Notes: a model not told the origin generated them from the sequence alone. DNA of 48,978 bases from Alphaproteobacteria bacterium (GCA_037127855.1 JBAXXO010000001.1:1-48978), one strand, 5' to 3'. Shown: positions 7,761 through 41,540, counted from the stretch's first letter. Numbers and translations are program-made.

Positions 7761-7809
7761 AGCGAGTTGCGTTCAATCAGGTGAACCTGATTGAACGCAA
7801 CTCGCTCTA
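7758..7809. repeat. Perfect 52-bp palindrome (copy 2) containing the stop codons of both convergent genes; probable bidirectional terminator-like hairpin
   Basis: TAGAGCGAGTTGCGTTCAATCAGGT-GA-ACCTGATTGAACGCAACTCGCTCTA, with 25-bp perfect arms. Confidence 0.9.
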
Positions 7810-8784
7810 ACGCTTTTCGCTATGTCCAGCAAAGCGAAGCAGAGACTTCTCCAAATCTTCAGGTCGGAAGCCGCGGCCGATGAATACGATGGTGCCATCT
7901 TCGCGCTCGCCCGCTTGCTCGGGCAGGATTTCAGGCGACTGCACGACCTTGCGCACTGTTTGCAACAAAAGTCGCCCGGCCGGCGTGCGTAGCACACCTT
8001 TGACCCGGACCAAATCATTGCCGCGCGCATGTAACAATGCCGACAACCACATGGCAAAGGCGGACCAGTCGATAGACGGGGCAATCGTCAGGCGGGTTGG
8101 AAAGATCGCCCCGCGCATGTCCTCTTCGGACAATGGTGGCAGAGCTTCGGTTTCAACCTCTTCTGGCAGCACAGGCAGCGCGATTGCCTCACCCAGAAAT
8201 GCGCCCGATTGGGGTGCGGCAGGTGTCAGGCTCCGAAGGGTGGCGCGCAGACGAAGCAGGGCAACGGGATCCACGGCATCGCATTTGGACAGGATGATCC
8301 GATCCGCCGCGCCAATTTGACGGCGCCCCAAGGATTCGGTCTGCAACTGCGCCAGCCCGTGCAGGGCATCAACGATCACGATAGTCTCATCTATCACGAT
8401 ATGATTGACCAGAACCGGGTCGCCCTGAACGGCAGCCACAATCGCGCCGGGGTCTGCAAGACCGCTCGTCTCCAGCACGATACGTTGCAGGCGCGTCGCA
8501 TTCGACAGGATCCGGCTGCGCTGGTCACACAAATCACGCAAGGCGCGGATCAGGTCAGCCTTGCCCGCGCAGCAGCAACAGCCACCCGCCAGCAATGTCA
8601 AGCCAGCAGCGCCGCCCAGAAGGGCATCGTCGACAGCCGTCTCAGCCGCCTCGTTCACCACGACATGGACGGGTCCAAAGCTGCCGACATGCAACTGATG
8701 ACGCAGCCATGTGGTCTTGCCAGAACCCAGATAGCCGCCCAAAATCGTCAGCCGCATCCGTCCATCTGCAAAGTCAGTCATCAT
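7807..8784 (-). CDS. COG0523/CobW-family G3E GTPase (putative metallochaperone)
   Basis: GYLGSGKTT Walker A, VVNE, GCCCC metal motif, LETSG, SKCD, and LVRVKG in the C-terminal domain. Confidence 0.9.
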   Translation of the reverse strand: MMTDFADGRMRLTILGGYLGSGKTTWLRHQLHVGSFGPVHVVVNEAAETAVDDALLGGAAGLTLLAGGCCCCAGKADLIRALRDLCDQRSRILSNATRLQRIVLETSGLADPGAIVAAVQGDPVLVNHIVIDETIVIVDALHGLAQLQTESLGRRQIGAADRIILSKCDAVDPVALLRLRATLRSLTPAAPQSGAFLGEAIALPVLPEEVETEALPPLSEEDMRGAIFPTRLTIAPSIDWSAFAMWLSALLHARGNDLVRVKGVLRTPAGRLLLQTVRKVVQSPEILPEQAGEREDGTIVFIGRGFRPEDLEKSLLRFAGHSEKR

Positions 8785-9067
8785 TCAGGAACGCTGGATC
8801 CAAAGGATCAATAGGGTGGCCCAGCAAACGCTCCGCCTCGGCCCACAGCGCACCAAGGTCTGGCAAGATGGTCTGATTTCCGGAAAGTGTGCCAAGTTGA
8901 ATGCCCGGAACCATGCCGCCGTCATGTGCGGTCAGCCCATATGGGCGCAACAGATTGTCAAGCAGGCCAGCCCGGTGAAAGCGGGCACGAAGCCGGTCGC
9001 CTGGCGTCGCAGCGCCCGCCTCGGTCCAATGGCCAGGAACGGATGGATTGCCGCAGGCATTGCACAT
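8774..9067 (-). CDS. Small hypothetical protein with N-terminal CxxC and His-Trp (97 aa)
   Basis: MCNACG..HWTE; overlaps the COG0523 start and lies in the same operon. Confidence 0.75.
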   Translation of the reverse strand: MCNACGNPSVPGHWTEAGAATPGDRLRARFHRAGLLDNLLRPYGLTAHDGGMVPGIQLGTLSGNQTILPDLGALWAEAERLLGHPIDPLDPAFLNDD

Positions 9068-9117
9068 CTTGCACCCTTTCGGAATGCAGGTGCCGGTTGC
9101 CCGACACCCGCAGTTTA

Positions 9118-10020
9118 TCAGATCACTTCCGGACGCGCAGCGCCTGCAAAGGGGAAGCGCACGCGGAAGTCGTTGGCAATGTCTTCAAACGGGGCCCATT
9201 CGACGCCGGAATGCCGCGAGATATACTCGATCAGACGCTCCAGCATCAGCAGAACCTGTGGGCGACCCGCCACGTCGGGGTGGATGGTGAAGGCAAACAC
9301 AGCATAATCCATCTCACGGTAAACCCAGTCAAACTGGTCACGCCACATTTCCTCAATATCGCGCGGGTTCACGAAGCCGTGCGAGTTCGGGGCCTTCTTC
9401 ATGAACATCATCGGCGGCAGATCGTCGACATACCAGTTGGCCGCGATATCGACCAGGTCGATCTCCGTGCCATGCTTCAGCGGGTGCATCCATTCCTTTG
9501 CGGTCTTGGAATAGTCGATGGTGTTCCAGCTATCGCCCACCTTGGCGTAGAAGGGCTGGAAATCCCGGTAGCCTTGGCTGTGGTCATAGGTGAAGCCGTG
9601 TTTTTGCAGCAAGGCAGCCGTCGAATTCGACATTTCCCACCAGGGCGCCACATAGCCACGCGGGGCGGTGCCGGTCAGACCCTTGATCAGCTCGATCGAC
9701 TTCACAAGAACGTCTTCTTCCTGCGAGGGCGTCATGGCGATGGGGTTTTCGTGAAGGTAGCCATGCGCGCCAACCTCATGGCCGCCAGCCACGATCATCT
9801 CCATCTCTCTCGGGAACGTTTCAAGGCTGTGGCCGGGGATGAAGAAGGTGGTCTTCAGGTCATACTTCTTGAACAGGCGCAGCAGGCGCGGCACGCCGAC
9901 TTCGGTGGCGAAGATGCCGCGCTGGATGTCTGACGGCGAATCGCCGCCGCCGTAGGAACCGATCCAGCCGGCGACCGAGTCGATGTCGGTGCCAAAGGCG
10001 CAGTAGATCTTTTTAGCCAT
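9118..10020 (-). CDS. Polysaccharide-deacetylase (CE4) family hydrolase, PuuE/HpPgdA-like
   Basis: [48 protein letters not shown]. Confidence 0.9.
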
Positions 10021-10041
10021 GAGGGTTTCCTCCTAAGATTT

Positions 10042-11220
10042 TCAGATTGCAGGCCAATTCGGGTCGGTCAGCGCCAAGGGATAGGCGATGCCATAGTCAA
10101 GCGGCGGACGGACCACGTATTTACGGTCGAACGCCGCCCAGTCGTAGGGCGCACCAGAGCGGACGATATAGGGCCAATCGGGCTGGGCAAAAATTGGGCG
10201 ACCGATAGCAACCATGTCCGCCGCGCCGTTGGTCAGGGCAGCTTCAGCTTGCGGGCCGTCGGCAATGCCGCCGTTGGTGATCATCGGCAGGCCCGATGCG
10301 TTTCGCAGCACTGTGGGCATGGGCCGGGCGTCGTCAGCTTGACGATTGTCGAGATAGTTGAAGCTGGCCCAATGCAGCGCATCATAGGCCGACCCCTTCA
10401 GGGCCGCACCAATGGCCTCGGCATAGGCAGTACCGGGCCAGGCGCCGACGAAATCATCCACGCCGTCCTGCGACAGGCGCAAGACGATCAGCTTGTCCGG
10501 ACCGATTGCAGCACGCACCTTGTCGCCCACCAGCTTGGCAAAGCGGATATTGTTTTCGGCCGAACCGCCAAAGTCATCGGTGCGCAGGTTGGTCTTGGGG
10601 TTGATGAACTGCCACAGAAGATAGCCGTTGGCACCATGAACCTCGACCCCATCCGCCCCGGCATCTACCGCACGCTTTGCGCCAGAGGCAAAGCCATCCG
10701 CGACCTGGTGGATTTCCTCGACCGTCAGGGCACGGGCGGGGCCGAAGGTGACTTTTTCCCAAGGCCCATCGATCGCACGGATCTGCTTTTCGTAGTCGTT
10801 GTCGGTGTACAGCGACCAACCACCACTTTGCGTGGCCGAGGCGCTGACAGGGGGTTGTCCGTTCAGAACACGCGGATCAGAAACCCGGCCACCATGCATC
10901 AACTGGACGATGATCTTGCAGTCATGCTGATGCACGGCGTCAAAGACCTTGGCCCAACCGGCCTGATGGCTGTCATTGGTGATACCGGGTTGCGACAGGT
11001 AGGCGCGGGACTGGAAGCCGTCCTGTTCATAGGTGCCTTCGGTAATGATCAAACCCAGACCGCCGCGGGCACGGCGGGCGTAGTAGGCGACCATCTCGTC
11101 ATTCGGTGTGCCGTCAGCCTCGGCCATCTGACGTGTCAATGGGGCCATGGCGATGCGGTTACGCAGGGTCAGCGGGCCCAGTTTGATCTGTGAAAACAAG
11201 GTCGGAAACGTTTCAGCCAT
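10042..11220 (-). CDS. NADH:flavin oxidoreductase (old yellow enzyme family)
   Basis: LRNRIAMAPLT, YYARRARGG.GLIITEG, QLMHGGR, EVHGANGYLL.QF..P..N.RTD.FGG. Confidence 0.92.
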   Translation of the reverse strand: MAETFPTLFSQIKLGPLTLRNRIAMAPLTRQMAEADGTPNDEMVAYYARRARGGLGLIITEGTYEQDGFQSRAYLSQPGITNDSHQAGWAKVFDAVHQHDCKIIVQLMHGGRVSDPRVLNGQPPVSASATQSGGWSLYTDNDYEKQIRAIDGPWEKVTFGPARALTVEEIHQVADGFASGAKRAVDAGADGVEVHGANGYLLWQFINPKTNLRTDDFGGSAENNIRFAKLVGDKVRAAIGPDKLIVLRLSQDGVDDFVGAWPGTAYAEAIGAALKGSAYDALHWASFNYLDNRQADDARPMPTVLRNASGLPMITNGGIADGPQAEAALTNGAADMVAIGRPIFAQPDWPYIVRSGAPYDWAAFDRKYVVRPPLDYGIAYPLALTDPNWPAI

Positions 11221-11223
11221 CCT

Positions 11224-12573
11224 TCATCCTCTGACAATCTGTTCTATGGCCAGGCCTGCAGCCAGAACCGCCCGATCACGCCCATGTTGAGCAGAGATCA
11301 TGAAACCAGTGGGCATCTGTTCGGCGTCAAACCCGTTCGGGATCGACAGCCCACACCAATCAAGGAAATTCCCCAAAGATGTGTTGCGCAGGGTTAGACC
11401 ATTGTGGCGGAAGAACACCTCTTGGTCGGCCTCCAGCGGGGCTATCGGCATCGCAACCGTCGGCGTTGTGGGGCAAATCAGCAAGGCGTTGCCAATCTGG
11501 TCGGCAACGGCGGCGATCAGTCGCTTGCGTTCGCGCAGCAGGATTGTCAAATCCACGGCTGAGGTATTGGCCGCGTTCATGATCCTGCGCACCACACGGG
11601 CATCTATCCGGGCGGCATCGGGTCCGTGCATGCGGTCCCAATGGACATCCAGCGCCTCAATCGCCACAAGAACGGCGCGGTGTGTGATCAGCGCAAGCGT
11701 CTCGGCCAATTCGGGCAGGGCCACCCGGCGCACTCTGGCACCTGATTGCTCCAGCCGGGCCACGGTGGCGTCGAAATTCGCGGCCACGGAACTTGAAAGC
11801 GTGTCCATCATCACTGCATCCGGAATGATGAAATCCAGTGTGGCAACCGGTGCGGCGTGAACGTCGGGCGCCGGCAGACCGCGCAGCACGGTATCGGCCA
11901 ACACGCAATCTTCGACGCTGTGTGCCAGCGGGCCAAGCGTATCAAGCGAGCGAGACAGTGGGAAAACCCCGGCCATCGGATAGTGACCGGTGGAGGTCTT
12001 GTAGCCCACCACCCCATTGAAGGCTGCGGGAATGCGGATCGAACCACCGGTATCGGTGCCAAAGGCGATCGGCACGATGTCATTTGCCACAACCACGCCA
12101 CTGGCCGACGATGACCCCCCCGGAGAGCGCGCTGGCCCTGTTCCGTTTGGGTTGCGCGGGGTTCCATAATGCGGATTCAATCCGATTCCTGAAAACGCGA
12201 ATTCCGTCATGTTCAGCGCGCCAACCGAGATCAGCCCTGCCCGCGCCCCTGCACCTACCAAGGCTGCGTCCTGTTCTGCTGGCGGATTGGACAAAAGAAC
12301 GACCGACCCCGCCGTCGTCACCCGACCTTTAAGGTCGAACAGATCCTTCCATGCCACCGGCACACCATCCAAAAGGCTGGCGGGATTGCCGGTCCGCAAG
12401 CGTTGGCGGGCGGCGCGTGCCTCGGCCTCGGCTCTCGGGCGCAGGGTCTGGGTGAAAATGGCCTTGTCACCAACCTCTTCGATCCTGGCGAAAACCTGAT
12501 CCACCAGGTCGAGCGGGTCAAGTCGCCCACTGCGCAGATCGCGCGAAAGGGCTACGGCAGATGTCTTGCGCAT
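11224..12573 (-). CDS. Amidase-signature family amidohydrolase
   Basis: WKDLFD, PGGSSS, GTDTGGSIRIP (Ser-cisSer-Lys triad). ATG at 12573 follows a GGAGAGG RBS. Confidence 0.92.
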   Translation of the reverse strand: MRKTSAVALSRDLRSGRLDPLDLVDQVFARIEEVGDKAIFTQTLRPRAEAEARAARQRLRTGNPASLLDGVPVAWKDLFDLKGRVTTAGSVVLLSNPPAEQDAALVGAGARAGLISVGALNMTEFAFSGIGLNPHYGTPRNPNGTGPARSPGGSSSASGVVVANDIVPIAFGTDTGGSIRIPAAFNGVVGYKTSTGHYPMAGVFPLSRSLDTLGPLAHSVEDCVLADTVLRGLPAPDVHAAPVATLDFIIPDAVMMDTLSSSVAANFDATVARLEQSGARVRRVALPELAETLALITHRAVLVAIEALDVHWDRMHGPDAARIDARVVRRIMNAANTSAVDLTILLRERKRLIAAVADQIGNALLICPTTPTVAMPIAPLEADQEVFFRHNGLTLRNTSLGNFLDWCGLSIPNGFDAEQMPTGFMISAQHGRDRAVLAAGLAIEQIVRG

Positions 12574-12589
12574 GAAATGCCCCCCTCTC

Positions 12590-13690
12590 CTAATGCTTGA
12601 TGACCGTCGAACGTGCGGCCTGCCACGCCACAAAGCCCTGCGAACCGGCCGCAAATTGCCCACGATATTTGTCGGCGTGACCCTCGACCGCGATCGTGTC
12701 GCCGTTGGGAAGCTGGACGGCCATCTGCAGAATGTGACCAATCAGTTGCGCCCGGGTGATCTTGCAGGGGATCACGTTGGTACCATAAGTCTGTTGCGCT
12801 TGCTGGCGTGAGATCGTATCTGGCAGGATATCGACAGCCTCGGCCGGCAGTATCAGCGAGGCCTGATCGCCTGCGGCCAGATGATCATTCTTCTCACCGC
12901 TCAACATGCCAATGGCGGTTTCCAGAACCACATCATCGCTGCCCATTTGGGTGATCTTGCCCGCGATCAGGGTGTTGGCACCGATGAAACGGGCAACGAA
13001 CAGGCTTTCAGGGCGGGTATAAAGCTGTCGCGGTGAGCTGATCTGTTCAACCCGGCCAGCGTTCATCACGACGATGCGGTCAGACAAGGCCAAAGCCTCG
13101 GATTGCGCATGGGTCACGAATACAAAAGTGATGCCAAGCGCGCGTTGCAGCAGTTTCAACTCGTGCTGGATGCTCTTGCGCAGGTTTGCATCCAAAGCGC
13201 CAAGCGGTTCGTCCAACAGAAGAATATCGGGCTCTACCACCAGCGACCGGGCCAGCGCTATACGTTGGCGCTGACCGCCCGACAGGCGGCTGGGGCGCGC
13301 ATTGGCGACATCGGTCAGGCCCAGCTTGTCGATAATGCGGTCAACCTTGCGGTCGGCATCCTGCGCGGGCATGCCTTTGACTTCAAGTCCGAAGCGAATG
13401 TTCTGGCGCACATTCATGTGTGGAAACAGCGCGTAGTTCTGAAAGATCATCGAAGTCGGGCGCTTTTCCGGCAGCAGGTCGTTGATACGCTTGCCACGGA
13501 TCATAAGATCGCCCGAGGTTATGGTCTCGAACCCAGCGATCATGCGAAGAGTCGTGGTCTTGCCGCAGCCGGATGGGCCCAGAAAGGCGATGAACTCGCC
13601 CTTATCCACATCAAGGTTGAAGTCGATAACAGCCGGAGTGCCGTTGTCATAAACCTTGCCGATACGGGAAAGCTGCAGGTCGTAGGCCAC
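12590..13690 (-). CDS. ABC transporter ATP-binding protein (PotA-like, TOBE-type C-terminus)
   Basis: GPSGCGKTT, LSGGQRQR, LLLDEP, VTH. Confidence 0.95.
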   Translation of the reverse strand: MAYDLQLSRIGKVYDNGTPAVIDFNLDVDKGEFIAFLGPSGCGKTTTLRMIAGFETITSGDLMIRGKRINDLLPEKRPTSMIFQNYALFPHMNVRQNIRFGLEVKGMPAQDADRKVDRIIDKLGLTDVANARPSRLSGGQRQRIALARSLVVEPDILLLDEPLGALDANLRKSIQHELKLLQRALGITFVFVTHAQSEALALSDRIVVMNAGRVEQISSPRQLYTRPESLFVARFIGANTLIAGKITQMGSDDVVLETAIGMLSGEKNDHLAAGDQASLILPAEAVDILPDTISRQQAQQTYGTNVIPCKITRAQLIGHILQMAVQLPNGDTIAVEGHADKYRGQFAAGSQGFVAWQAARSTVIKH

Positions 13691-13755: not shown

Positions 13756-14976
13756 TCAGGCAGACAGGAATTCGTCCCACTTCGTCATCAGCAGGTCGTA
13801 CTCATCCGGCCACTGGTGCCAGTAAGCGACGTTCGCGGCACGGGTTGCCAACGAGCCACCATCGCGCAGATCACCTTCGTTGATGCCACGATCAGACGCG
13901 CCAACCCACGGTTTGCCTTCGTACCAGAAGCCGTACTTTTCGGGCGACATAATCGCCTTGACCTTGTCGTTGGGCGAGTAGTAGCCCTGTTCCGACACAG
14001 CCACAGCCGGACCACCCGACAGCCAGTAATCGGCATAAGCCGTCACAGCGTCGAGGTTCGGCGAGGATTTCAGCGCCGAAACGCCTATGGCCCAAGCGCG
14101 ATAGCCGTTCTTCATGGTTGCGTAAGAGCATTGGACGCCCTGCGCTTTCACAGCCATCACAGCAGGCTGCCAAGCGTCAGCCAGAACCATTTCGCCCGAA
14201 GCCATCAGGTTAACCAATTCACCAAAGTCACCCCAAAGAGCGCGGAACTGGCCTTCTTTTTTCTTCGAGATCAGGAACTTGGCTGCTTCTTCAATCGAAG
14301 CCGCATCTGCGTTGCCCGGATTCTTCACTTCCAAAAGACCCAATTCGTTCATTGCCATTACGGCCTGACCGAAAGCGATCAGCGGGTCGACGTTCAGACC
14401 TGTCTTGCCCTTGAACTTGGGGTCAAACAGCGAGGACCACATCGAGGCCTCTTCCGCCGAGACGAGGTCAGGGCGATAGCCGATCGAGTCGAAGTTGTAG
14501 ACGGTCGGGACCATGTTCAGCGCCGTCATCGTCTCGTCGGTGTAGATCTGGCCAACGATCTGCGCCTTGGCATCCCACTTCGGGTCGGCCTTGACGAAGC
14601 TTTCGCCTACGCCGGTCCAGTTCTTCAGCGCCGAGGTGGCGATGGGCGAAACAAGGCCGGTCTGGGTGATCGAGGGCAAACGCTCGCCGATGGTTTCCCA
14701 GCAGTCATAAGCGGTCGAGCCAGACAGCAGTTCGGTCTGGGTGTTCGGGAAGATGTCGGCTTTGCCTGACACTGCCTTGACGCCCGAGACCTTCTGGAAG
14801 TCTGCCAGAATGCGGTCTTGCACGGTCACCGACAGACCCACGGTGCGCAGTTCCTGCGAGGCGAGGTCAGCGGCGAAAGCTTGTTGTGCGCCTAGGAACG
14901 GCAAGCCGCCCGCAGCGATTGCTGCGCCGGCCGTCCCTTTCAGGAACCCGCGCCGGGATAGTGAACTGTGTATCAT
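13756..14976 (-). CDS. ABC transporter substrate-binding protein (PotD/PotF-like), Tat-exported
   Basis: SRRGFLK Tat motif, hydrophobic region and AFA cleavage site; SIGYRPDLV, W..LFDPKFKGK. Confidence 0.92.
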   Translation of the reverse strand: MIHSSLSRRGFLKGTAGAAIAAGGLPFLGAQQAFAADLASQELRTVGLSVTVQDRILADFQKVSGVKAVSGKADIFPNTQTELLSGSTAYDCWETIGERLPSITQTGLVSPIATSALKNWTGVGESFVKADPKWDAKAQIVGQIYTDETMTALNMVPTVYNFDSIGYRPDLVSAEEASMWSSLFDPKFKGKTGLNVDPLIAFGQAVMAMNELGLLEVKNPGNADAASIEEAAKFLISKKKEGQFRALWGDFGELVNLMASGEMVLADAWQPAVMAVKAQGVQCSYATMKNGYRAWAIGVSALKSSPNLDAVTAYADYWLSGGPAVAVSEQGYYSPNDKVKAIMSPEKYGFWYEGKPWVGASDRGINEGDLRDGGSLATRAANVAYWHQWPDEYDLLMTKWDEFLSA

Positions 14977-15019: not shown

Positions 15020-15775
15020 TCAGTAACGTCCGACCAGCAAACCACCGTCGACCACCACGACCTGACCCGTCATGTAACGGGAACCGTGGGAAGCGAGGAA
15101 CAAGGCGACATCGGCAATCTCTTCAGGTCTACCGATGCGCCCCATGGGGATGAACTCCCCAGCCTTCTCCGCAGCTTCCGGGCCGAGGGAGTGTTCCTTC
15201 GACAAAAGCTGCGCTGTCCGGATGTAGCCTGGCGCTATGCCATTCACCCGAATGCCGTCGCGTGCCAATTCCACCGCAAGGCCGCGCACCAAGCCCACCA
15301 CCCCGGCTTTCGCCGCCGAGTAATGTGCATGTTCGTCCCAGCCATAGGCCACGCCCATGATCGAAGACAGCGCCACGATGGCCCCTTTCTTGCGCGCCTT
15401 CATCCCCGCCAAGGCAGGACGCACGACGCGGAAGATGCCCTTGAGGTCGATGTCGAACGTATGATCCCACTTTGCATCGGTCATCTCGGCCAGTGGCACA
15501 CGATGCGCAATGCCGGCATTGGCCACGATGACGTCGATGCCGCCGTGCCTGGCCTCTGTTGCCGCCACAACGGCATCAGCGGCCTCGGTCGAGCGCACGT
15601 CGAGCATGTGGAACTCTGCCGACCCACCCTCGGATAGGATTTCGGCAACCAGCGAGGCACCTTCCGACACCAGAACGTCAGTTGCCACGACATGGTAGCC
15701 TGCCTTGGCAAAGGCCTTGGCTGTGGCGCGGCCAATGCCTATGCTTGCGCCGGTGATCATGACCGTTTCGCTCAT
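15020..15775 (-). CDS. Short-chain dehydrogenase/reductase
   Basis: TGASIGIG, ANAG, YSAAK, VNGIAPG. Confidence 0.93.
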   Translation of the reverse strand: MSETVMITGASIGIGRATAKAFAKAGYHVVATDVLVSEGASLVAEILSEGGSAEFHMLDVRSTEAADAVVAATEARHGGIDVIVANAGIAHRVPLAEMTDAKWDHTFDIDLKGIFRVVRPALAGMKARKKGAIVALSSIMGVAYGWDEHAHYSAAKAGVVGLVRGLAVELARDGIRVNGIAPGYIRTAQLLSKEHSLGPEAAEKAGEFIPMGRIGRPEEIADVALFLASHGSRYMTGQVVVVDGGLLVGRY

Positions 15776-19300: not shown

Positions 19301-19409
19301 TCGCCCCGATCTCGGGACCGCACAAATCGCGCGGCCCGTCCCCTTGTTCTTGCCGTTCGGTGATGCGCCGAACGTCGTATCCGCCGCGCCGATCTTTGTG
19401 CAAACTGCA

Positions 19410-19472
19410 CTTCGTATAACATAGCGGTCTTGGACATCTGTCAATCGAACTTTTGTTATCTCTTTGTTATCT
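19410..19472 (-). promoter_or_regulatory. Putative promoter/operator of the ABC-SDR-amidase operon
   Basis: TTGACA at 19444-19439 (minus strand) with an AT-rich TATGTTATAC downstream; direct repeat TTTGTTATCT at 19452 and 19463. Confidence 0.45.
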
Positions 19473-33907: not shown

Positions 33908-36007
33908 TCAGTGCCCTTCCACGTTGCGGCTGATCACAATGTCGCCCAAGCGCATCACCAGCGCGGTGTAGCCCTTGGGGATGACGGTGGTGGAGTTTTG
34001 CTGGGTGACGATGGCAGGCCCGGTCACCACGTCGTCGGCTTTCAATTTGCTGCGGTCAAAGCGCGGGGTTTCCAGCGTTTGGCCATCGTCAAAGGTGGTC
34101 AATCGGGAATACAGCGCCGCGTCAGACGGGTTACGGCGCCCGCCCTTGTCAAGTTCCGGCAGGCGCAGGGTGTCAGCCGAGGCGGTGCCGATGACGCGCA
34201 GGGTCACGACCTCAACCGCTTGATCCTCAAAGGCATGGCCGTATTCGGTACGATGGACCGCATAGAAGGCCCGCGCGACACCGTCCGCGGTCGCGGCCGT
34301 AAACGGCCCCTCCGGGACATCGACGCGCAGTTCAAAGCCTTGCCCAACATAGCGGCATTCCGCGATGCGCGAGAAGCGTTGCGCCTTGGCCGGGACGCCG
34401 TCGCTGTCCAGTTGCGCCTTGGCCTCGGCTTCCAATCTGTCAAAGATCGCTCCAAGGTTGGCGAATGTGTCCATATCCCCCGCCTGCAGGATGGCCAGCG
34501 CGGACCGGGTGAATTCATAGCGCGGTTCGGTGACCAAAAGCCCCATCGCCGCCGTGATGCCGGGATGCAGGGGAGAGATGACGTTCTTCGCCCAAATCGC
34601 CTCACCCAGTGCCACGCCATGCAAAGGCCCGGCACCGCCAAAGGCCATCAGGCTGAAGCCCCGCGGGTCAATGCCCCGCGCAACCGAATTGGACGCGATC
34701 GCCAGCGCCATATGGTTGTTGATGATGCGCAGCACGCCCAAGGCAGCGTCCTTCACCGACAGACCCAACGGTTCCGCCAGTTTTGAACGGATCGCTGCCT
34801 CTGACAAGGCCGGGTCGATCTTCAACCCACCACCCAGGAACTGATCCGAGTCCAGACGCCCCAGCACCACCTGCGCGTCCGTCACCGTCGGCTCTACCCC
34901 GCCTTTACCATAGCAGGCCGGTCCCGGCTCTGCCCCGGCCGAGCGCGGACCGACACGGAAGGCACCACCGCTGTCGACATAGGCAATCGACCCGCCGCCC
35001 GCCCCGATGGCATCGATGTCGATCATCGGCACCAGCACCGGCATTTCGGCCACTTCGGTGTCACGCGGGTTCTTGATGGTCAGGGCACCATTGCGGATGA
35101 CCGAGATGTCGGCAGAGGTCCCGCCAATGTCGATGGTGATGACTTGGCCCTGACCGCAGGCCTCTCCTGTCCAGCGCCCGCCGATCACGCCACCCGCCGG
35201 ACCGGACAGAAGCAAACCGACCGGGTTCTTGCTGGCTTGCTCCACCGTCGAAACCCCACCATTCGACTGCATCATGCGGACATAGGCAGTCACCCCAGCC
35301 TCTCGCAAACGGCGTTGCAGGTTGTCCAGATAGCCAGCCGTGCGCGGCCCGATATAGGCGTTCATCGCTGCGGTCGAAAACCGTTCATATTCGCGCATTG
35401 TATTCACGACTTCAGACGAGGCGCAGATGAAGGCGTCCGGCATGACACGCTGGACGATTTCTTTCGCTTTAAGTTCGTGCTCGTTGTTGAGGAACGAGAA
35501 AAGGAAGCCGATCACCACAGCCTCTAGCCCGCGCTGGGCGAAAAGCTCTGCCGCCTGTTCGACCTCGTCCAGGTTCAACGCCGTTTCCACCACGCCCGTC
35601 GGTGGCATGATCCGTTCGGTCACGGCAATGCGGTTGCGGCGCTTGATCAGCGGCGCGCTTTGCCATGGCACATCAAATTGCAGCGAAAAGTTGTGGGGGC
35701 GTTTGTGCCGCGCCATATGCAGAATGTCACGGAAGCCCTTGGTGGTGATCATCCCGACCTCTGCCCCGTCACGCTCGATCACGATATTGGTGGCGACCGT
35801 GGTGCCGTGAAACAGCGCGTCGATCTGGCCTGGCTGGATGCCAGCGATGGCGCAAAGCTGCACCACGCCCTGCACAACGCCAATCGACTGGTCTTTTGGC
35901 GTACTGGAGACTTTGTGTACAAAGACCTGCTGGCGGCCATCCGCCCCCACCGCCTCCAACACGAGATCGGTGAAGGTACCACCCACGTCAACGCCTACCC
36001 TGATCAT
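33908..36007 (-). CDS. Hydantoinase A/oxoprolinase family protein (second copy)
   Basis: GVDVGGTFTD, HGTTVATN, SGPAGG, DIGGTS, GAGGGSI, GP.SAGA.PGPACY. Confidence 0.92.
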   Translation of the reverse strand: MIRVGVDVGGTFTDLVLEAVGADGRQQVFVHKVSSTPKDQSIGVVQGVVQLCAIAGIQPGQIDALFHGTTVATNIVIERDGAEVGMITTKGFRDILHMARHKRPHNFSLQFDVPWQSAPLIKRRNRIAVTERIMPPTGVVETALNLDEVEQAAELFAQRGLEAVVIGFLFSFLNNEHELKAKEIVQRVMPDAFICASSEVVNTMREYERFSTAAMNAYIGPRTAGYLDNLQRRLREAGVTAYVRMMQSNGGVSTVEQASKNPVGLLLSGPAGGVIGGRWTGEACGQGQVITIDIGGTSADISVIRNGALTIKNPRDTEVAEMPVLVPMIDIDAIGAGGGSIAYVDSGGAFRVGPRSAGAEPGPACYGKGGVEPTVTDAQVVLGRLDSDQFLGGGLKIDPALSEAAIRSKLAEPLGLSVKDAALGVLRIINNHMALAIASNSVARGIDPRGFSLMAFGGAGPLHGVALGEAIWAKNVISPLHPGITAAMGLLVTEPRYEFTRSALAILQAGDMDTFANLGAIFDRLEAEAKAQLDSDGVPAKAQRFSRIAECRYVGQGFELRVDVPEGPFTAATADGVARAFYAVHRTEYGHAFEDQAVEVVTLRVIGTASADTLRLPELDKGGRRNPSDAALYSRLTTFDDGQTLETPRFDRSKLKADDVVTGPAIVTQQNSTTVIPKGYTALVMRLGDIVISRNVEGH

Positions 36008-36080
36008 CCTTGCATCCCTTGTTGTTAACGCCCTGTCGTTCGCGGCCCCGCGCAGCTATCGCCAAGCCTTTGTTTTGCAT

Positions 36081-36929
36081 TCACTTCCAGGCGGCCTGCG
36101 CCTCCATGCACAGCCGCTCATCGTCGGCAGCGGTCCACAGATGCAGCCCCTCTGCCGTTTCATCCGCGTTGACGGTAAAGGCCGCGCCGTCGATCAGCGG
36201 GCTTATGCCGCGAAACGCGAAGGTCGCAGGCGGTGCGCCCCGCAGGCGGGCGGCGTATTCAAGCATCAGTGTGACTTGCAGCGGGCCGTGGACCACGAGG
36301 CCCGCATAACCCTCGGACTGGATCGCATGATTGCGGTCATAGTGGATGCGGTGGCCGTTGAACGTGATGGCGGAATAGCGAAACAACAGCACCGGGTCGG
36401 CCATGACGCTGAACGACCAGCGCGCCTTTGGTGCCTGCGGGATCACCGGCGCGGGGGCATCGGGGTCACGCGGGGCACGATAGACGATGTCGTGCCGCTC
36501 GGTCAGGATCAGCCCTTGCGCGCTGGTGAACGCGTGATGGACCGTCACAAAGCACAGCGCCCCGCTGCGGCCCGTTTTCACAACCACGTCACGCACGGTC
36601 GATTGCCGCGTAACCACATCGCCGACCTTGAAACGTCCATGCAGGTCGATCTGTCCACCCGCCCACATCCGGTGCGGCAATGGCACCGGCGGCAGCAGTC
36701 CGCCGCGTTTGGGGTGCCCGTCCAGCCCAAGCTGCGACATCGGACGTATGGCGGGTGCAAGGCACCAATGGATCGCCAAGGGGGCTTCGTCGCCAATGGC
36801 GCGCTCTGGGGTGGGGTCGTCCAGTATGGCCAGATAGCCTGCGACCAGCCGGGCTGAGACGGTATCCTCGACCGTTTCGGTCCGGCCGATCCATTGGCGC
36901 AGGTGGTCAATGTCCAGGAGGCCGGTCAC
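36081..36929 (-). CDS. Double hot-dog (MaoC/FAS1-like) acyl-CoA hydratase, itaconyl-/mesaconyl-CoA hydratase-like
   Basis: LRQWIGR, LG.DGHPKRGG.LPPV, RMWAGG, LFRYSAITFNGHRIHYD, LVVHGPL. GTG start overlaps the upstream TGA. Confidence 0.85.
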   Translation of the reverse strand: MTGLLDIDHLRQWIGRTETVEDTVSARLVAGYLAILDDPTPERAIGDEAPLAIHWCLAPAIRPMSQLGLDGHPKRGGLLPPVPLPHRMWAGGQIDLHGRFKVGDVVTRQSTVRDVVVKTGRSGALCFVTVHHAFTSAQGLILTERHDIVYRAPRDPDAPAPVIPQAPKARWSFSVMADPVLLFRYSAITFNGHRIHYDRNHAIQSEGYAGLVVHGPLQVTLMLEYAARLRGAPPATFAFRGISPLIDGAAFTVNADETAEGLHLWTAADDERLCMEAQAAWK

Positions 36930-38038
36930 TTGGAAAACTCCGCCCGGATCTGATCGGTGTGTTCGCCAAGCTCTGGAACAGGTCCAGCCACCAGATCGCG
37001 GCGCAACGCAGACACCGCCCCGCTGAAGCTCCCCCCCGCCACACGGCCTGCCATCCGGCGCAACGCCGGGTGTGCGGACAAATCCGCCACGGTGCTGACC
37101 CGCGACCAAGGCAGGTCTGCGGCCTGCAGCACCGCAATCATTCCGGCCTGGGTCTGGGCCGCGAAAATCGGGCCGATAAGGTCATCCAGCGCTGCGCGAT
37201 TGACCACGCGGGCCGGGTTGCTGGCAAAGCGGGGGTCTTGCGCAAGATCCGGGCGTTGCAGGACCATGTCGCAAAACCGCACCCACTCTTGTGGGGTTTG
37301 CACGACGGCCACCACGTCGCCGTCAGCGCAGGCATAGGCGCCATAGGGATAGATCGACGCGTGGCGCAGCCCCACCCGCGGCGTGTCCCGCTGGCCATAG
37401 TCGTGGTGCAACAAAGGCACCGACATCAGATCCGCCATGGCGTCAAACATGGCGATCTCGATCACTTTGCCCCGCCCAGTCTGCCCGCGCTCCAACAAAG
37501 CCTCAAGGACGGCTGCATGTGCCGTCATACCCGTCGTGACATCGGCCAGCGAGACACCGACCTTTACCGGGGTTTCGGCCGTCCCGGTCACAGAACACAG
37601 CCCGCATTCCGCCTGGATCAGCATGTCATAAGCGCGCATCGAATGTGCTGGGGTGTTTTGTCCGAAGCCGACGATATCGACAGCAATGAGGCCAGGATAG
37701 CGTGCCACCAGGTCAGCCGCCCCCAGACCCAGCCGCGCAGCGGCACCGGGGGCCAGGTTCTGCACAAACACATCGGCTTGCGCGACCATAGCCTCGACCA
37801 GGGCGCGGTCCGCTACGGCCTTGATGTCAAGCACAGCACTTTGCTTGCCGCGGTTCAGCCAGGCGAAATAGGCGCTGGTGCCGTGGACGGCGCGGTCATA
37901 GTGGCGCGCCGTGTCACCGGTTTCCCGCTCGACCTTGATGACGCGCGCGCCCGCGTCGGCCAGCCGCACGGTGCAGGCAGGTGCCGCAACCGCCTGTTCG
38001 ATGGCGACAACCAGCAGCCCTGTCAGCGGACCCGCCAT
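36926..38038 (-). CDS. Class III CoA-transferase (CaiB/BaiF)
   Basis: PL.GL.V..IEQAVAAP, LADAGARVIKVE, LNRGKQS, AYD..IQAE.G. Confidence 0.92.
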   Translation of the reverse strand: MAGPLTGLLVVAIEQAVAAPACTVRLADAGARVIKVERETGDTARHYDRAVHGTSAYFAWLNRGKQSAVLDIKAVADRALVEAMVAQADVFVQNLAPGAAARLGLGAADLVARYPGLIAVDIVGFGQNTPAHSMRAYDMLIQAECGLCSVTGTAETPVKVGVSLADVTTGMTAHAAVLEALLERGQTGRGKVIEIAMFDAMADLMSVPLLHHDYGQRDTPRVGLRHASIYPYGAYACADGDVVAVVQTPQEWVRFCDMVLQRPDLAQDPRFASNPARVVNRAALDDLIGPIFAAQTQAGMIAVLQAADLPWSRVSTVADLSAHPALRRMAGRVAGGSFSGAVSALRRDLVAGPVPELGEHTDQIRAEFSK

Positions 38039-38039
38039 T

Positions 38040-39212
38040 TCAGTAAGACCTTGGCAGGCCAAGCACATGCTCGGCCAAATGAGACAAGATCAGGTTGGTC
38101 GAAATCGGCGCAACCTGATACAGCCGTGCCTCACGGAACTTGCGTTCGATGTCGTATTCTTCGGCAAAGCCGTAACCGCCGTGGGTCTGCACGCAAGCCT
38201 CGGCGGCGGCCCAAGAGGCCTCGGCAGCCAGCATCTTGGCCATGTTCGCCTCTGCGCCACAGTCCTTGCCCGCCTCGAACAGGCCGGCTGCATGTCGGAC
38301 CATCAGGTCAGCGGCGCGCATCTGCGCATAGGCACGCGCGATGGGAAACTGAACGCCCTGATTCTGGCCAATCTGGCGGCCAAAGACCCGGCGCTCGTTG
38401 GCGTAAGCCGTCGCCTTGGCGATGAACCATTTGGCGTCGCCGATACATTCCGCAGCGATCAGCACGCGTTCTGCGTTCATGCCGGACAGGATGTAACGAA
38501 AGCCACGGCCCTGCTCGCCGATCAGGTTTTCGGCCGGCACCATGACGTTGTCGAAAAACACCTCGGTGGTGGAGTGGTTCATCATGGTCCGAATGGGCCG
38601 GATCGTCATTCCGGCCTGAAGCGCCCGTTTCATGTCGACGATGAAGACCGAAAGCCCATCCGTTCGCTTGGCCACTTTGTCCTTGGGCGTCGTTCGGGCC
38701 AGTAGCAGCATCAGGTCGGAATGTTCGGCCCGACTGGTCCAGACCTTTTGCCCGTTGACCACGTAATGATCGCCGCGCTTTTCGGCAAAGGTGGTGATCG
38801 AGGTCGTGTCCGTGCCGCTGCCCGGTTCGGTCACGCCAAAAGCCTGAAGCCGCAAGGCACCTGATGCAATCTGCGGCAGGTAGCGGGCCTTTTGCGCATC
38901 GGACCCATGCCGCAAAAGACTGCCCATGATGTACATCTGCGCATGACATGCCGCGCCATTGGCCCCGGCTTTCTGAATCTCCTCCAGCACGGCAGCCGCC
39001 ACACTCAAGCTTAAGCCGGCACCGCCATAGGCTTCGGGGATCAAGACCGAAAGATAGCCCGCTTCGGTCAGGGCCGTCACAAATTCGGTCGGATAACCAG
39101 CCTCGCGGTCAAGCTTGCGCCAGTATGTGCCGGGAAACTGTCCGCAAAGGCGCGCCACAGACACGCGGATCTCGCGGATTTCGTCGCTTTCGTCAGGGTT
39201 TTCGTAGGGCAT
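38040..39212 (-). CDS. Acyl-CoA dehydrogenase
   Basis: LIPEAYGGAG, AFGVTEP.SGTD, NGQKVWTS, FG..IG..QGVQF, QTHGGYGF..EY.IER. Confidence 0.93.
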   Translation of the reverse strand: MPYENPDESDEIREIRVSVARLCGQFPGTYWRKLDREAGYPTEFVTALTEAGYLSVLIPEAYGGAGLSLSVAAAVLEEIQKAGANGAACHAQMYIMGSLLRHGSDAQKARYLPQIASGALRLQAFGVTEPGSGTDTTSITTFAEKRGDHYVVNGQKVWTSRAEHSDLMLLLARTTPKDKVAKRTDGLSVFIVDMKRALQAGMTIRPIRTMMNHSTTEVFFDNVMVPAENLIGEQGRGFRYILSGMNAERVLIAAECIGDAKWFIAKATAYANERRVFGRQIGQNQGVQFPIARAYAQMRAADLMVRHAAGLFEAGKDCGAEANMAKMLAAEASWAAAEACVQTHGGYGFAEEYDIERKFREARLYQVAPISTNLILSHLAEHVLGLPRSY

Positions 39213-39286
39213 CAACGGACCTTTTTGGATTACATCGGATAAGACACACAAGGCAAAGCCGGGCAGAAGCCTGGATCTGCCGATTT

Positions 39287-39311
39287 CAGTTATGCCGGAT
39301 CGGCATAACTG
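39287..39311. promoter_or_regulatory. Perfect palindrome, putative operator (LysR-type) upstream of the acyl-CoA dehydrogenase operon
   Basis: CAGTTATGCCG-GAT-CGGCATAACTG; contains a T-N11-A core; lies in a divergent intergenic region. Confidence 0.55.
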
Positions 39312-39388
39312 CTTGCAGACCTGCGCGGGTGCACCTGGCCCTGGACGAATGCTAGGCTTGTGCGCCGCGTGGGGAAAAGGGGCCGGGG

Positions 39389-40051
39389 ATGACGCTTTCG
39401 ATAGACCTCTTCTGGTCGTTTCGCAGCCCCTATTCCTATCTCTTGCTGCCAAGGATCGTTTCCTTGAAGCGCGACTTCGACATTGATGTCGATCTGCACG
39501 TCGTCCATCCTGCGGCACTTAGAAATCCGGCGTATTTTGCCCGCATGGACCCGTTGGCCCGCCCCTATTTCCTGGCTGACAGCGCGCGGGCGGCGGCGTT
39601 TCTTGGCCTGCCCTTTCGCAGGCCCGTCCCCGACCCTATCAGCCAGGACCCGATCACCTTGGCCATAAGCCGCGACCAACCGCTTGCGATATGGCTCGGC
39701 CGTCTTGGCGTCGCAGCGACAGAGCGGGGCCAAGGGCTGGCCTTTGCAGATCAGGTTTCGCGCCTGCTCTGGGATGGAACCGTGACAGGCTGGGACAGCG
39801 GCGATCATGTGAAGCGGGCCACGGCGCAAGCCGGGCTTGATCTTGCGGACCTGACGGCTTTGGTTGCGGCAGATCCCGCGCATTACGACGCGCAGCTTGC
39901 GCAAAACAACGCCCTGTTGCGGGCGGCGGGACATTGGGGCGTCCCCAGCATGGTCTTTTCCGGTGAGGTTTTCTTTGGGCAGGATCGGTTTGACGTCTTG
40001 CTGTGGCGGCTGCAGCAGGCGGGGCTTGCGCGACGTGGCGTCACTCGCTGA
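39389..40051 (+). CDS. 2-hydroxychromene-2-carboxylate isomerase / GST-kappa (DsbA-like) family protein
   Basis: FWSFRSPYSYL; GHWGVPSM..GEVFFGQDR. Confidence 0.88.
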   Translation: MTLSIDLFWSFRSPYSYLLLPRIVSLKRDFDIDVDLHVVHPAALRNPAYFARMDPLARPYFLADSARAAAFLGLPFRRPVPDPISQDPITLAISRDQPLAIWLGRLGVAATERGQGLAFADQVSRLLWDGTVTGWDSGDHVKRATAQAGLDLADLTALVAADPAHYDAQLAQNNALLRAAGHWGVPSMVFSGEVFFGQDRFDVLLWRLQQAGLARRGVTR

Positions 40052-40223
40052 CCGCTCGACCTTTTTTCAATCGCTGACGCGCCTCCCGCATCTGGCCTGC
40101 GCGGGCAATGACGGGTGCAGCCACCATTTGCCGCCGCAGCGCGAAAAGGGCACCGCCGCCCACGTGCAGCGCCGCGATGGTGTCATCGGTCAATGTCATG
40201 CTGAATGGGGCAGCACATGGTGC

Positions 40224-41540
40224 TCATGACGCCCGCAGAAGTTTGCCCAGATCGGATGCTGTCCGCGCGTCCAGTTGGACGACCGCTTGCCACAGACCTT
40301 CTGCCTCGGCTCCCAAAAGCCCGGTTGCCTTGGCGCGCAGGCTTGCTTCCAGCACGTCGGGGCCAAGAGGGGCTGCAAGGTCATGTCCGAACCGCAGCAC
40401 CACGCCATCGGTCAGCACAATATCGCCCACTGCCTGCATATCGCTGACCTTGGCGTCGCCCGTTACCGTAATCTTGCTTGCAAATGCCGTCAGTTCAAGG
40501 TCGGCAGCCAACGCGTCGGTATAGCTCCGGTCGGCAGCGGTCTGACGGTCCAGCAGTACCATGCCTGCAAGCCAGGTGTAACTGAACTTGACCTCCAGCC
40601 CGGTGCGCGGCGCTTTGATATCACAGACCGACAGCCAGCGTGGGCTGGTCCGCAGGTGGATCGCCGCCACCCGTTCCGCCGAAAGTTGATGCAAACGCCG
40701 AGCGGCTGCCAGCCCCTCGATCATCGCATGGGTGCCGTGACAGCAGGCGTGCAGTTTGTATTTGATCTGCTCGAACACAAAGGTGCCGGGCGGTGGTGCA
40801 TCCCAAACTCCGACCTCGGACGGCGCATCGGAATGCGTTGCCACAAAGCCCTGCTGCCCCATCACCCCATCGTCCGCCGAGGTAAAGCCCCGACGCGCCA
40901 ACCCCGCGCATTCCACCCCGTTGGCGGCGGCGAGCCCGGCGTTATAGGGTTTGCCCATCGTGCCGAACTGCGATTTCAGGCCCGAAGCACGGGTGGCACA
41001 CAGGCCCAGGGCCACACGCATCTGATCGCGGGTCAGATCATAAACCCGCCCCGCCGCGATGGTGGCACCAAAGGCACCCGCCGTGGCGGTCTGGTGAAAG
41101 CCTCGGTTGTAATGCGCCGAACCCAGCACCATCCCCAGCCGCACAGACGCCTCGGCCCCGATCAAAAACGCATCCGCGACGGTTGCAGCGCTGGCACCAA
41201 CCTCCTCGCCCACCGCCAGGGCAGCGGGATAAATCCCGACCGAGGGATGGCCCACATGGCCGAAATGGGTATCATCGTAGTCCAGCGCATGGCTGGTTGC
41301 GCCATTGACCAGGGCCACCGCCCGCGCCGGTGCCTGCCCACCGCCAAAGATTGACGCGACCGGGCGTCCGCCTTCTGCCGCCACATATTTGCGCAAGATG
41401 CACGCCAAGGGCTCATCCACCCCGGCGCGGCCGCATACCAACCAGTCGAATAGCGAAAACCGGGCCATGATCCGTGCACTTTGCGGAATCTCGGCTGCGG
41501 GCAGCGCAGCAAGGTCAAGCAGTCGCGAAAGGGTCGTCAT
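40224..41540 (-). CDS. MmgE/PrpD-family protein
   Basis: NGATSHALDYDDTH, GHPS, HYNRGFHQT.T.G.FGA, QFGTMGKP, K.HACCHGTH, LEVKFS. Confidence 0.92.
   Translation of the reverse strand: MTTLSRLLDLAALPAAEIPQSARIMARFSLFDWLVCGRAGVDEPLACILRKYVAAEGGRPVASIFGGGQAPARAVALVNGATSHALDYDDTHFGHVGHPSVGIYPAALAVGEEVGASAATVADAFLIGAEASVRLGMVLGSAHYNRGFHQTATAGAFGATIAAGRVYDLTRDQMRVALGLCATRASGLKSQFGTMGKPYNAGLAAANGVECAGLARRGFTSADDGVMGQQGFVATHSDAPSEVGVWDAPPPGTFVFEQIKYKLHACCHGTHAMIEGLAAARRLHQLSAERVAAIHLRTSPRWLSVCDIKAPRTGLEVKFSYTWLAGMVLLDRQTAADRSYTDALAADLELTAFASKITVTGDAKVSDMQAVGDIVLTDGVVLRFGHDLAAPLGPDVLEASLRAKATGLLGAEAEGLWQAVVQLDARTASDLGKLLRAS

Follow-up and report, generated by a model that had tools for sequence, protein, structure and literature searches.

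A conserved alphaproteobacterial gene cluster with three ATP-dependent ring-opening systems, predicted to scavenge small lactams and imides

The DNA analysed here, a stretch of 48,978 nucleotides from an Alphaproteobacteria bacterium (GCA_037127855.1, JBAXXO010000001.1:1-48978; hereafter the window), carries at positions 7807..41540 a cluster of 30 genes, 28 of which lie on the minus strand; an AraC regulator and a DsbA-family gene occupy the plus strand. The best explanation of this cluster, with a probability of roughly 0.55, is the multi-entry scavenging of small lactams and imides, the routes converging on succinate-type acids. The rings would be imported and then opened along four different predicted routes, with their nitrogen and carbon serving as nutrients. 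What is established here is which genes and families the cluster contains, that the catalytic motifs are intact and that the same genes recur together in other genomes, including distant bacteria from water and soil: the cluster is a conserved, reshuffled functional unit rather than a chance mosaic, built as a conserved core with interchangeable ring-opening cassettes. The original prediction for this DNA had described a nearly co-oriented cluster of about 34 kb with an ATP-binding cassette (ABC) importer, a set of ring-modifying and CoA-dependent enzymes and GntR, AraC and LysR regulators. All of these components were recovered, the linked cyclic-amide catabolic unit with three ATP-dependent ring-opening systems is supported, and we agree that the substrate cannot be read from the sequence alone. 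Overlooked at that stage were the genes for biotin carboxylase and biotin carboxyl carrier protein (BCCP) inside the Pxp-type set, the second importer ATPase, a binding-protein homologue (SBP2) and a 97-aa protein. In the literature searched, which excluded supplements (Fig. S1 of PMC3084791 may show parts), no published account of the whole cluster was found, and it is apparently a so far undescribed assembly of known enzyme kinds.

The cluster is located on contig C1 of a 3.57-Mb genome (97% complete), and the loci closest to it include some labelled Cypionkella, Pseudorhodobacter and Rhodobacterales. Families were assigned by Pfam and NCBIfam profile searches with cut-offs, and catalytic motifs were undamaged in every cluster protein examined for them. 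Most intergenic gaps range from -11 to +87 bases, wider ones being present before the first ABC ATPase gene, ABC1 (276 bases), before capB (221 bases) and around the DsbA-family gene (172-176 bases). In the order of transcription the cluster begins with MmgE/PrpD, the DsbA-family gene (plus strand), an acyl-CoA dehydrogenase (ACAD), CaiB, a MaoC-like hydratase, HyuA2, HyuB2, LysR and AraC (plus strand), and continues with CapB, CapA, LamB, BCCP, biotin carboxylase, the CT_C_D and CT_A_B carboxyltransferase (CT) subunits, SBP2 (428 aa) and GntR. It ends with an ABC ATPase, two permeases, two short-chain dehydrogenases/reductases (SDRs), the binding protein SBP1, a second ATPase, the amidase, an old-yellow-enzyme ene-reductase (OYE), the CE4 hydrolase, the 97-aa protein and CobW. 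Coordinates given below refer to the minus strand unless stated otherwise.

In the proposed scheme, small five- and six-membered cyclic amides of several oxidation levels would be converted into succinate-type dicarboxylates and omega-amino acids. The rings would be taken up by the ABC importer, whose binding protein has a PotD fold, under the control of GntR and with SBP2 as a cytoplasmic sensor. In the ATP-independent core, OYE would reduce unsaturated rings of the maleimide or pyrrolinone type, an SDR would oxidise hydroxylactams to imides, the CE4 enzyme, loaded with metal via the small protein and CobW, would open the imide to a half-amide, and the amidase would free ammonia and the diacid. 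HyuA2B2 may open a related imide or N-acylurea ring at the expense of ATP, and a branched product such as methylsuccinate would be activated and oxidised by an Ict/Mcd/Ich/MmgE-type module, the citramalyl-CoA lyase coming from another part of the genome. CapAB, induced through AraC, would open six- and seven-membered lactams, and the biotin system would N-carboxylate a lactam that is a poor substrate for CapAB, most likely 2-pyrrolidinone; LamB would then yield GABA, to be removed by an aminotransferase encoded outside the cluster.

The most conserved core comprises the importer, the two SDRs, the amidase, CE4, the small cysteine-containing protein and CobW. The CE4 hydrolase and the amidase had been regarded as accessory in the original prediction, a view that has to be given up, as the ATP-independent imide route to which they are assigned is the most conserved part of the cluster. 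The CE4 protein (9118..10020) is a predicted cyclic imide hydrolase of the HpPgdA/HxnM type and scores 480 bits against PDB 3QBU, the PgdA (HP0310) of H. pylori. Counted by eye, 201 of 290 alignment columns are identical (~69%), and all ten HpPgdA active-site residues, as named in the structure paper of Shaik et al., are retained (D12, D14, Y23, H86, H90, W127, W128, W196, L201, H247); full-length identity together with the Zn and buried-pocket residues places the protein among the HpPgdA/HxnM-type CE4 enzymes. An allantoinase of the PuuE type was ruled out, as the TIGR03212 score of 77 falls far below the cut-off of 425. The H. pylori protein is annotated as a peptidoglycan deacetylase (PMC3084791), whereas the CE4 protein of the window has no signal peptide and is encoded in a catabolic operon, and a cell-wall deacetylase was rejected on these grounds and on account of the buried-pocket residues. 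According to the same paper, HpPgdA itself has a buried active site, was inactive on all substrates tried, namely polysaccharide, N-acetyl polyamine and N-acetyl dipeptide substrates and allantoin, and has homologues with polyamine importers nearby.

The two genes that follow CE4 encode a 97-aa cysteine-containing protein with the start MCxxCG (8774..9067), which is homologous to a rhizobial gene in the same position and gave no Pfam family match and only unnamed clusters in the Atlas, and a CobW/COG0523-type GTPase (7807..8784; PF02492 and PF07683) with GCCCC and Walker A motifs. This triad was present at 23 of the 24 class-level CE4 loci examined (34 genomes with a match). CobW is likely a metal chaperone for the CE4 enzyme, and the 97-aa protein is a candidate metal-delivery partner. 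At three loci (L098, L102, L107) the triad adjoins another diacid-activating module, made up of a family III CoA-transferase and a gene resembling HMG-CoA lyase.

The remaining core enzymes are OYE (10042..11220; PF00724), with no close solved relative (best PDB match 208 bits), the amidase-signature amidase (11224..12573), a predicted half-amidase likewise without a close solved relative in PDB, which exceeds the NF004766 cut-off (586 vs 559) and has its K/S/S motifs intact, and SDR2 (15020..15775) and SDR1 (15772..16488), both assigned by Pfam/NCBIfam families. Atlas searches returned generic names only. The same four families, OYE, SDR, HpPgdA-like CE4 and amidase-signature amidase, form the lower part of the nicotinate (Hxn) pathway of A. 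nidulans (PMC9304392), where HxnT (OYE), HxnW (SDR), HxnM (HpPgdA-like) and HxnN (amidase) lead from a pyridine ring through a hydroxylactam, an imide and glutaramate to hydroxyglutarate (PMC9304392; PMC8478523). HxnM is the proposed opener of 3-hydroxyglutarimide, HxnT and HxnW act before it and HxnN after it, and HxnM is reported to be 64% identical to a P. putida homologue of cyclic imide hydrolase (PMC9304392). The window, with these families in one block, differs from the fungal pathway in that it lacks the upstream pyridine hydroxylases or monooxygenases and adds a bacterial ABC importer and a second SDR.

The hydantoinase-like pair 2 consists of HyuB2 (32132..33904) and HyuA2 (33908..36007). 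HyuB2 scores 603 bits against PDB 7HK5, an N-methylhydantoinase, vs 207 against CapB, and a second caprolactamase was ruled out, since the two subunits reach only 546 (HyuA2, CapA model) and 222 vs cut-offs of 1000; pairs 1 and 2 are only 29-34% identical. HyuA2 and HyuB2 share 59% and 65% identity with a P. denitrificans pair whose lengths (692 and 596) agree with the N-methylhydantoinase match listed as 692 and 594 in Table 1 of PMC8453981. In a quick tree of 42 rows, which has long branches and includes one row from a creatinine context, the HyuB2 group of the window (>=70% identity) formed a separate branch with a support of 98, sister to N-methylhydantoinase. The latter is the nearest characterised clade; the window, however, contains no creatinine genes, and HyuA2B2 has OYE, amidases and the CoA module as neighbours, while relatives at ~65% identity are located among creatinine genes.

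Within 10 kb of 26 distinct loci of the HyuA2B2 group, many of them collected with OYE queries and with partial flanks, OYE was found 18 times, an ACAD of the methylsuccinyl-CoA dehydrogenase (Mcd) type 13 times, an amidase-signature amidase 12 times and an aminotransferase once. Among the 13 more distant of these loci (70-85% identity), 10 carry within 10 kb an amide hydrolase belonging to one of three families, and one has an aminotransferase. Since amide hydrolases are common and aminotransferases rare near HyuA2B2, its product probably keeps an amide or ureido group, so that an imide or N-acylurea is a more probable substrate than a plain lactam. Among 72,556 plasmid records, Aminobacter pUSP2 is the best match for HyuB2 and the sole one for OYE at E<=1e-80, and it carries HyuA2B2, OYE, an SDR, an amidase and ACAD-CaiB-MaoC.

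Several related arrangements were met in passing. An extra HyuAB pair, 63% identical to HyuB2 and weakly grouped with a creatinine-context enzyme, is present in L022 (G021), L130 (G447) and L132 (G446), which thus hold four ATP-dependent systems per locus. In the host genome another HyuAB pair (43-47% to HyuA2B2) is found on contigs C115 and C54, both of which stop inside HyuA; C115 also bears a gene resembling dihydropyrimidinase and an ABC importer related to that of the cluster. In L199, L219 and L220 the OYE orthologues adjoin a gene of the ornithine cyclodeaminase/alanine dehydrogenase family and, in L199 and L219, an isochorismatase-family amidase as well, which may favour ureides as substrates.

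Upstream of pair 2 lies the CoA module, made up of a MaoC-like protein resembling itaconyl-CoA hydratase (Ich; 36081..36929; 205 bits to PDB 8KHG), an Ict-like family III CoA-transferase of the CaiB type (36926..38038; PF02515; 60% identical to the CaiB of a Mesorhizobium cluster) and an ACAD predicted to be of the methylsuccinyl-CoA dehydrogenase type (38040..39212; 76% to the ACAD of that cluster), which has no close solved relative in PDB. The MmgE/PrpD-family protein (40224..41540) has IDS epimerase as its best PDB match (151 bits) and is likely a dicarboxylate isomerase. Between ACAD and MmgE/PrpD, on the plus strand, a DsbA-family protein without CxxC is encoded (39389..40051; PF01323), which we take to be of the HCCA isomerase/GST-kappa type. 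The complete Mesorhizobium reference cluster reads LysR-ACAD-oxidoreductase-CaiB-MaoC-lyase-MmgE. The published itaconate/methylsuccinate cluster Ict, Ich, Ccl, Mcd, Msi (PMC12290011) is matched in the window by the Ich-like hydratase, the family III CoA-transferase, ACAD, MmgE/PrpD and LysR; four of the five enzyme families are present and citramalyl-CoA lyase (Ccl) is missing. The window further differs from known clusters in that its PrpD belongs to another subgroup and a ring-opening enzyme is joined to the module. A Ccl-like lyase lies inside the module in two relatives (G024, G026) and in the host genome on contigs C56 and C272; closer PrpD relatives adjoin an ACAD homologue in other records, as PrpD stands near ACAD here. 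Contig C56 of the host holds a further module with a distant CE4 (27%), two PrpD, the Ccl-like lyase, an ACAD, two CaiB and an amidase.

It could be argued that the true substrates are cyclic ureides, such as hydantoins or modified pyrimidines, which OYE would reduce and HyuA2B2 or CE4 would open to an N-carbamoyl acid, the amidases acting as carbamoylases. The creatinine contexts of the sister group (creatininase, deaminase, isochorismatase-family amidase) point in this direction, as do the close isochorismatase relatives and a nitrilase-family protein (weak N-carbamoylputrescine amidase match) beside some HyuA2B2/OYE loci and the dihydropyrimidinase in some CE4 loci; the Atlas matches do not separate carbamoylase from half-amidase. 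A Pfam search of the window, however, detected no creatininase, deaminase, dihydropyrimidinase, M20 carbamoylase or sarcosine oxidase. Dicarboxylate and hydroxylactam chemistry is also a better match for the SDR pair and the Ich/Mcd-type module, and the reported failure of HpPgdA to use allantoin (PMC3084791) also speaks against ureides, so that this explanation appears unlikely.

Pair 1, encoded by capB (28174..29928) and capA (26078..28159), is a true member of the CapAB family and a predicted lactam hydrolase. Both caprolactamase subunits pass the equivalog cut-off of 1000 (CapA, NF050156, 1216; CapB, NF050157, 1096), and CapB scores 909 bits against PDB 6YRA_B. CapA shows the three ASKHA ATP-site motifs DAGGTFTD, DMGGT and GSDPGP, and the Zn site of CapB (D43, H101, D104, H126) is aligned. 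The pair thus resembles CapAB of P. jessenii and OplBA of P. putida (PMC8453981, PMC6061476, PMC11033972) in B-A gene order, ATP and Zn motifs and an adjacent regulator. P. putida OplAB prefers valerolactam and has only trace activity on butyrolactam (PMC11033972). In P. jessenii, CapAB is clustered with omega-aminotransferase, dehydrogenase and beta-oxidation genes (PMC8453981, PMC6061476), whereas here it is co-transcribed with the biotin system and has no aminotransferase beside it.

The third system is by gene content a five-gene biotin-dependent set, consisting of a LamB/PxpA-family hydrolase (25336..26064; PF03746), a minimal BCCP with the motif EVMKSF (25086..25322; NF005457 over the cut-off), a dedicated biotin carboxylase (23701..25083; NF009471, 767 vs 686), whose housekeeping paralogue on contig C149 is 53% identical, a long PxpB/KipI-like CT C/D subunit of 291 aa (22829..23704) and a PxpC/KipA-like CT A/B subunit (21868..22839; TIGR00724 over the cut-off). 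The PxpABC-like label originally attached to this set could not be upheld. Only the PxpA subfamily model is passed (NF003814, 266 vs 226), PxpB (TIGR00370, 68 vs 146) and PxpC (NF045499, 224 vs 500) are missed, and the biotin carboxylase and BCCP genes are coupled to the CT genes, unlike canonical three-subunit PxpABC, which has no dedicated biotin parts; a canonical 5-oxoprolinase was ruled out accordingly. Urea or guanidine carboxylase was ruled out as well, the parts being four separate genes that each score far under the TIGR02712 cut-off of 1304.

LamB/PxpA hydrolase together with CT_C_D and CT_A_B is a combination shared with PxpABC, PP_2920-2, the A. nidulans LamA-LamB system and urea carboxylase, LamA being presumably urea-carboxylase-like; biotin carboxylase, BCCP and the CT halves complete the domain set of urea carboxylase. 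The CT C/D subunit aligns to the CT domain of urea carboxylase along nearly its full length, and in comparison with the K. lactis enzyme K173 and Y196 correspond to K1605 and Y1628, residues which, with D1584, we take to be functional in that domain; the Asp at the 1584 position is missing. The set differs from PxpABC and urea carboxylase in its own biotin parts, its separate proteins, the missed PxpB and PxpC cut-offs and the absent Asp 1584. Elsewhere the host genome encodes a fused urea carboxylase, on contig C12, and on contig C42 another set of the Pxp type. At 15 of 22 class-level CT loci, those with flanks, a scan of selected ORFs located an adjacent biotin carboxylase 14 times, LamB 12 times, a class III aminotransferase at least 4 times, BioY at least 3 times and CapAB twice. 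Three genomes of one genus have a regulator-LamB-CT-CT arrangement without biotin genes (43-44%, 65% and 62% identity, the CT subunits lying at 62-65%), which, compared by layout only, matches PP_2919 to PP_2922. Knockouts in P. putida identified this Pxp-like set, with its three hydrolase genes, as the enzyme that hydrolyses butyrolactam (bioRxiv 10.1101/2021.12.09.472016), and in A. nidulans lamB serves the utilisation of 2-pyrrolidinone (PMC3412718). The biotin set of the window is a putative lactamase that would act via N-carboxylation, most likely on 2-pyrrolidinone.

The importer is composed of ABC ATPase 1 (18218..19300; assigned by Pfam/NCBIfam families and sequence comparison), a PotB-like permease (17346..18221), a PotC-like permease (16485..17342) and ABC ATPase 2 (12590..13690), the last three assigned by Pfam/NCBIfam families, together with SBP1 (13756..14976; PF13416), a periplasmic binding protein of the twin-arginine translocation type by a weak match. 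A model of SBP1 (pLDDT 91), which included the signal peptide and left out the last 34 residues, matches the PotD/PotF fold at ~20% identity and gave no ligand; a PDB sequence search found no match. A true PotABCD polyamine importer was ruled out, as the PotA-D equivalog cut-offs were all missed and the fold alone matches.

Three regulators are encoded in the cluster. GntR (19577..20563) has two helix-turn-helix domains and an FCD domain by Pfam and overlaps the gene for SBP2 (20560..21846), a binding-protein homologue without a signal peptide or a hydrophobic N-terminal stretch, 25% identical to SBP1 (E 4e-31), for which no Pfam match was obtained and single-sequence folding gave low confidence (pLDDT 33). 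SBP2 is followed by GntR in all 41 loci found with SBP2, the pairing being absent from two rhizobial plasmids; comparable SBP2-GntR pairs were seen in the more distant paralogous loci L096 and L147. AmiC is a precedent for a cytoplasmic binding-protein sensor, and by analogy SBP2 is a candidate cytoplasmic ligand sensor paired with GntR. A predicted core-block promoter and candidate GntR operator (19406..19444) consists of a TTGACA hexamer followed by the conserved motif ATACGAnnTRCA, which precedes ABC1 in 31 of 38 orthologous intergenic regions. The window contains five further matches with one mismatch (6 in total vs 2.4 expected), and its sole exact copy lies before ABC1, which rules out a single GntR regulon for the whole cluster. 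Upstream of capB the motif was not found, and another conserved stretch occurs instead; there the AraC regulator (30150..31100, plus strand; Pfam) is divergent from capB, with which it co-travels. The Nac-like LysR regulator (31121..32044) is 37% identical to the LysR ahead of the Mesorhizobium itaconate-type cluster, and an inverted repeat between ACAD and the DsbA-family gene (39289..39309) is a weak candidate LysR site (3 of 241 loci match, all close kin). As the upstream motifs differ from block to block, at least three blocks are probably under separate control. This makes the single pathway from uptake to dicarboxylyl-CoA that had been proposed too simple, the more so as the cluster has no omega-aminotransferase and semialdehyde dehydrogenase, and lactam products must therefore leave it.

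Conservation of the cluster was followed in other genomes. Gene order is kept at 80-97% identity over 27 genes in G007 and G010 and 29 in G026; among members of the genus the arrangement does not vary, but the flanking DNA does. Among the 41 loci found with SBP2, the importer and both SDRs are present in 30 of 31 and the amidase in 31 of 31 of those with at least 8.5 kb downstream, the biotin set in 29 of the 34 with enough upstream DNA, some HyuAB in 27 of 31 and CapB in 15 of 31. Elsewhere in Rhodobacterales, in Rhizobiales and on low-GC metagenome contigs the parts are assembled differently: R. johnstonii 3841 pRL12 (RL_RS33615-33705) and Shinella HZN7 combine the core with the biotin set in a different order, an Aestuariivirga genome unites the core with HyuA2B2, the biotin set, CapAB and ACAD-CaiB, and in Paragemmobacter straminiformis CAM-8 the core is accompanied by a CoA module and the three ATP systems. 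In L222 the three ATP systems, OYE, BioY and the CE4 triad form one run of different order, and in G167 (L112 and L236, ~49% GC) importer and SDRs occur together with all three ATP systems. A search with OYE gave 47 metagenome loci; 30 of them are at least 11 kb long with an OYE identity of at least 50%, and these contain SBP1 in 21 cases, CE4 in 19, HyuA2B2 orthologues in 15, CapB in 8, a CT subunit in 7 and ACAD in 4. Core genes with OYE were also noticed on metagenome contigs with a GC content of 0.39 (L226) and 0.29 (L228), so very different lineages have been reached. It had been reasoned that unrelated sub-operons would be expected to occur independently elsewhere; modules do occur alone, but the same modules re-assemble repeatedly in distant lineages.

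Such assemblies might also mean that all enzymes act serially on one complex compound, for instance an N-substituted or polyamine-derived lactam that the ATP systems open and CE4 and the amidase deacylate. The proximity of a HyuAB pair to 16 of the 24 class-level CE4 loci, the usual de-N-acylating activity of the CE4 fold, the polyamine-binding fold of the importer and the several loci with all parts in one run, such as L222, fit this idea. Against it, the HyuAB partners come from several distant clades and replace each other, and gain and loss affect the blocks one by one: at the core of L049 neither CapAB nor the biotin set is left, and three Ruegeria loci (L068, L071, L076) have the core with no ATP system within the available upstream DNA. 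Given also that neither N-acetyl polyamines nor N-acetyl dipeptides were used by HpPgdA (PMC3084791), a serial pathway seems quite improbable. An integration hot spot, in which unrelated nitrogen-scavenging operons accumulated and are linked by descent only, would accommodate the modules found alone in many genomes, the block-specific upstream motifs and the variable flanks, but is very hard to reconcile with the same orthologues regrouping in new orders in Rhizobiaceae, Aestuariivirga, Roseobacteraceae and low-GC contigs and with CaiB and MaoC alleles only ~50% identical occupying the same role in G024, G446 and G447.

Several points nevertheless weigh against multi-entry scavenging of lactams and imides. 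The substrates of all cluster proteins are predictions; the links to HxnM/N/T/W, the P. putida imide hydrolase, PP_2920-2 and the C. necator Mcd/Msi run through family, the HpPgdA bridge or layout, and the activity of HxnM was itself deduced from metabolite build-up in mutants (PMC9304392). The cluster has no lactam hydroxylase that would join the lactam and imide branches, and family searches of it found no aminotransferase, semialdehyde dehydrogenase or citramalyl-CoA lyase; lacking the first and the last of these, the cluster does not complete the route by itself. Identity between PrpD and the MmgE proteins of two itaconate-type clusters is only 30%, and no more than 2 of the 13 distant HyuB2 loci and 4 of the 30 long OYE loci have an Mcd-type gene at a distance of up to 10 kb. 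Importer, SDRs and amidase are present in G145 and G167 with no CE4 match at E<=1e-100. Moreover, CE4 occurs in 34 and the CT subunit in 22 of 400 class-level genomes, and the 3 genomes with both, where they are unlinked, compare with ~1.9 expected by independence. One must also bear in mind that many of the loci are close kin and that the OYE counts are inflated by the OYE query.

To the left of the cluster the window contains tRNA-Arg(CCT) (327-403, minus strand), ribD-ribE-ribA (1821-4083, plus strand) and a DUF3300-DUF2950 pair (5357-7760, plus strand); none of these was found beside the cluster in the relatives examined, and the rib and DUF genes and serA/serC had no match in 11 stretches, some of whose flanks extend only a few kb. 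A tRNA-anchored island was ruled out, since no repeat of the tRNA-Arg of at least 14 bases occurs elsewhere in the window, and the GC content of the blocks (0.60-0.64), which is inside the genome's own range, counts against it too. A weak match to an HK97-type prohead protease near the contig end (47009-47740, plus strand; Pfam S78 above and TIGR01543 below the cut-off) is possibly a phage remnant.

A more specific role of the cluster, rather speculative and at present improbable, would be the catabolism of pyrrole and tetrapyrrole oxidation products. Breakdown of chlorophyll and haem gives maleimides, hydroxy-pyrrolinones and pyrrolinones, and OYE, the SDRs, CE4, HyuA2B2, the amidase and the lactamases would together span all oxidation levels of the five-membered ring, the CoA module consuming the methylsuccinate-type acids formed. 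If true, this would reveal a pigment-nitrogen sink for aquatic and rhizosphere bacteria, add a natural source of methylsuccinate and name a substrate class for the HpPgdA family.

In a wider sense, several enzyme families of unproven real substrate could be tested directly through this cluster. In cultured strains it becomes possible to test what the HpPgdA ("peptidoglycan deacetylase") family, so far refractory to assay, acts on, and the conserved small protein and CobW may be the component that earlier HpPgdA assays were without. Cultured strains would likewise permit testing whether lactam rings can be opened through biotin-dependent carboxylation by a split enzyme resembling urea carboxylase, and where environmental methylsuccinate, the origin of which was called unclear until recently (PMC12290011), comes from. 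Finally, the cluster is a source of candidate enzymes and sensors for lactams that serve as nylon monomers or solvents.

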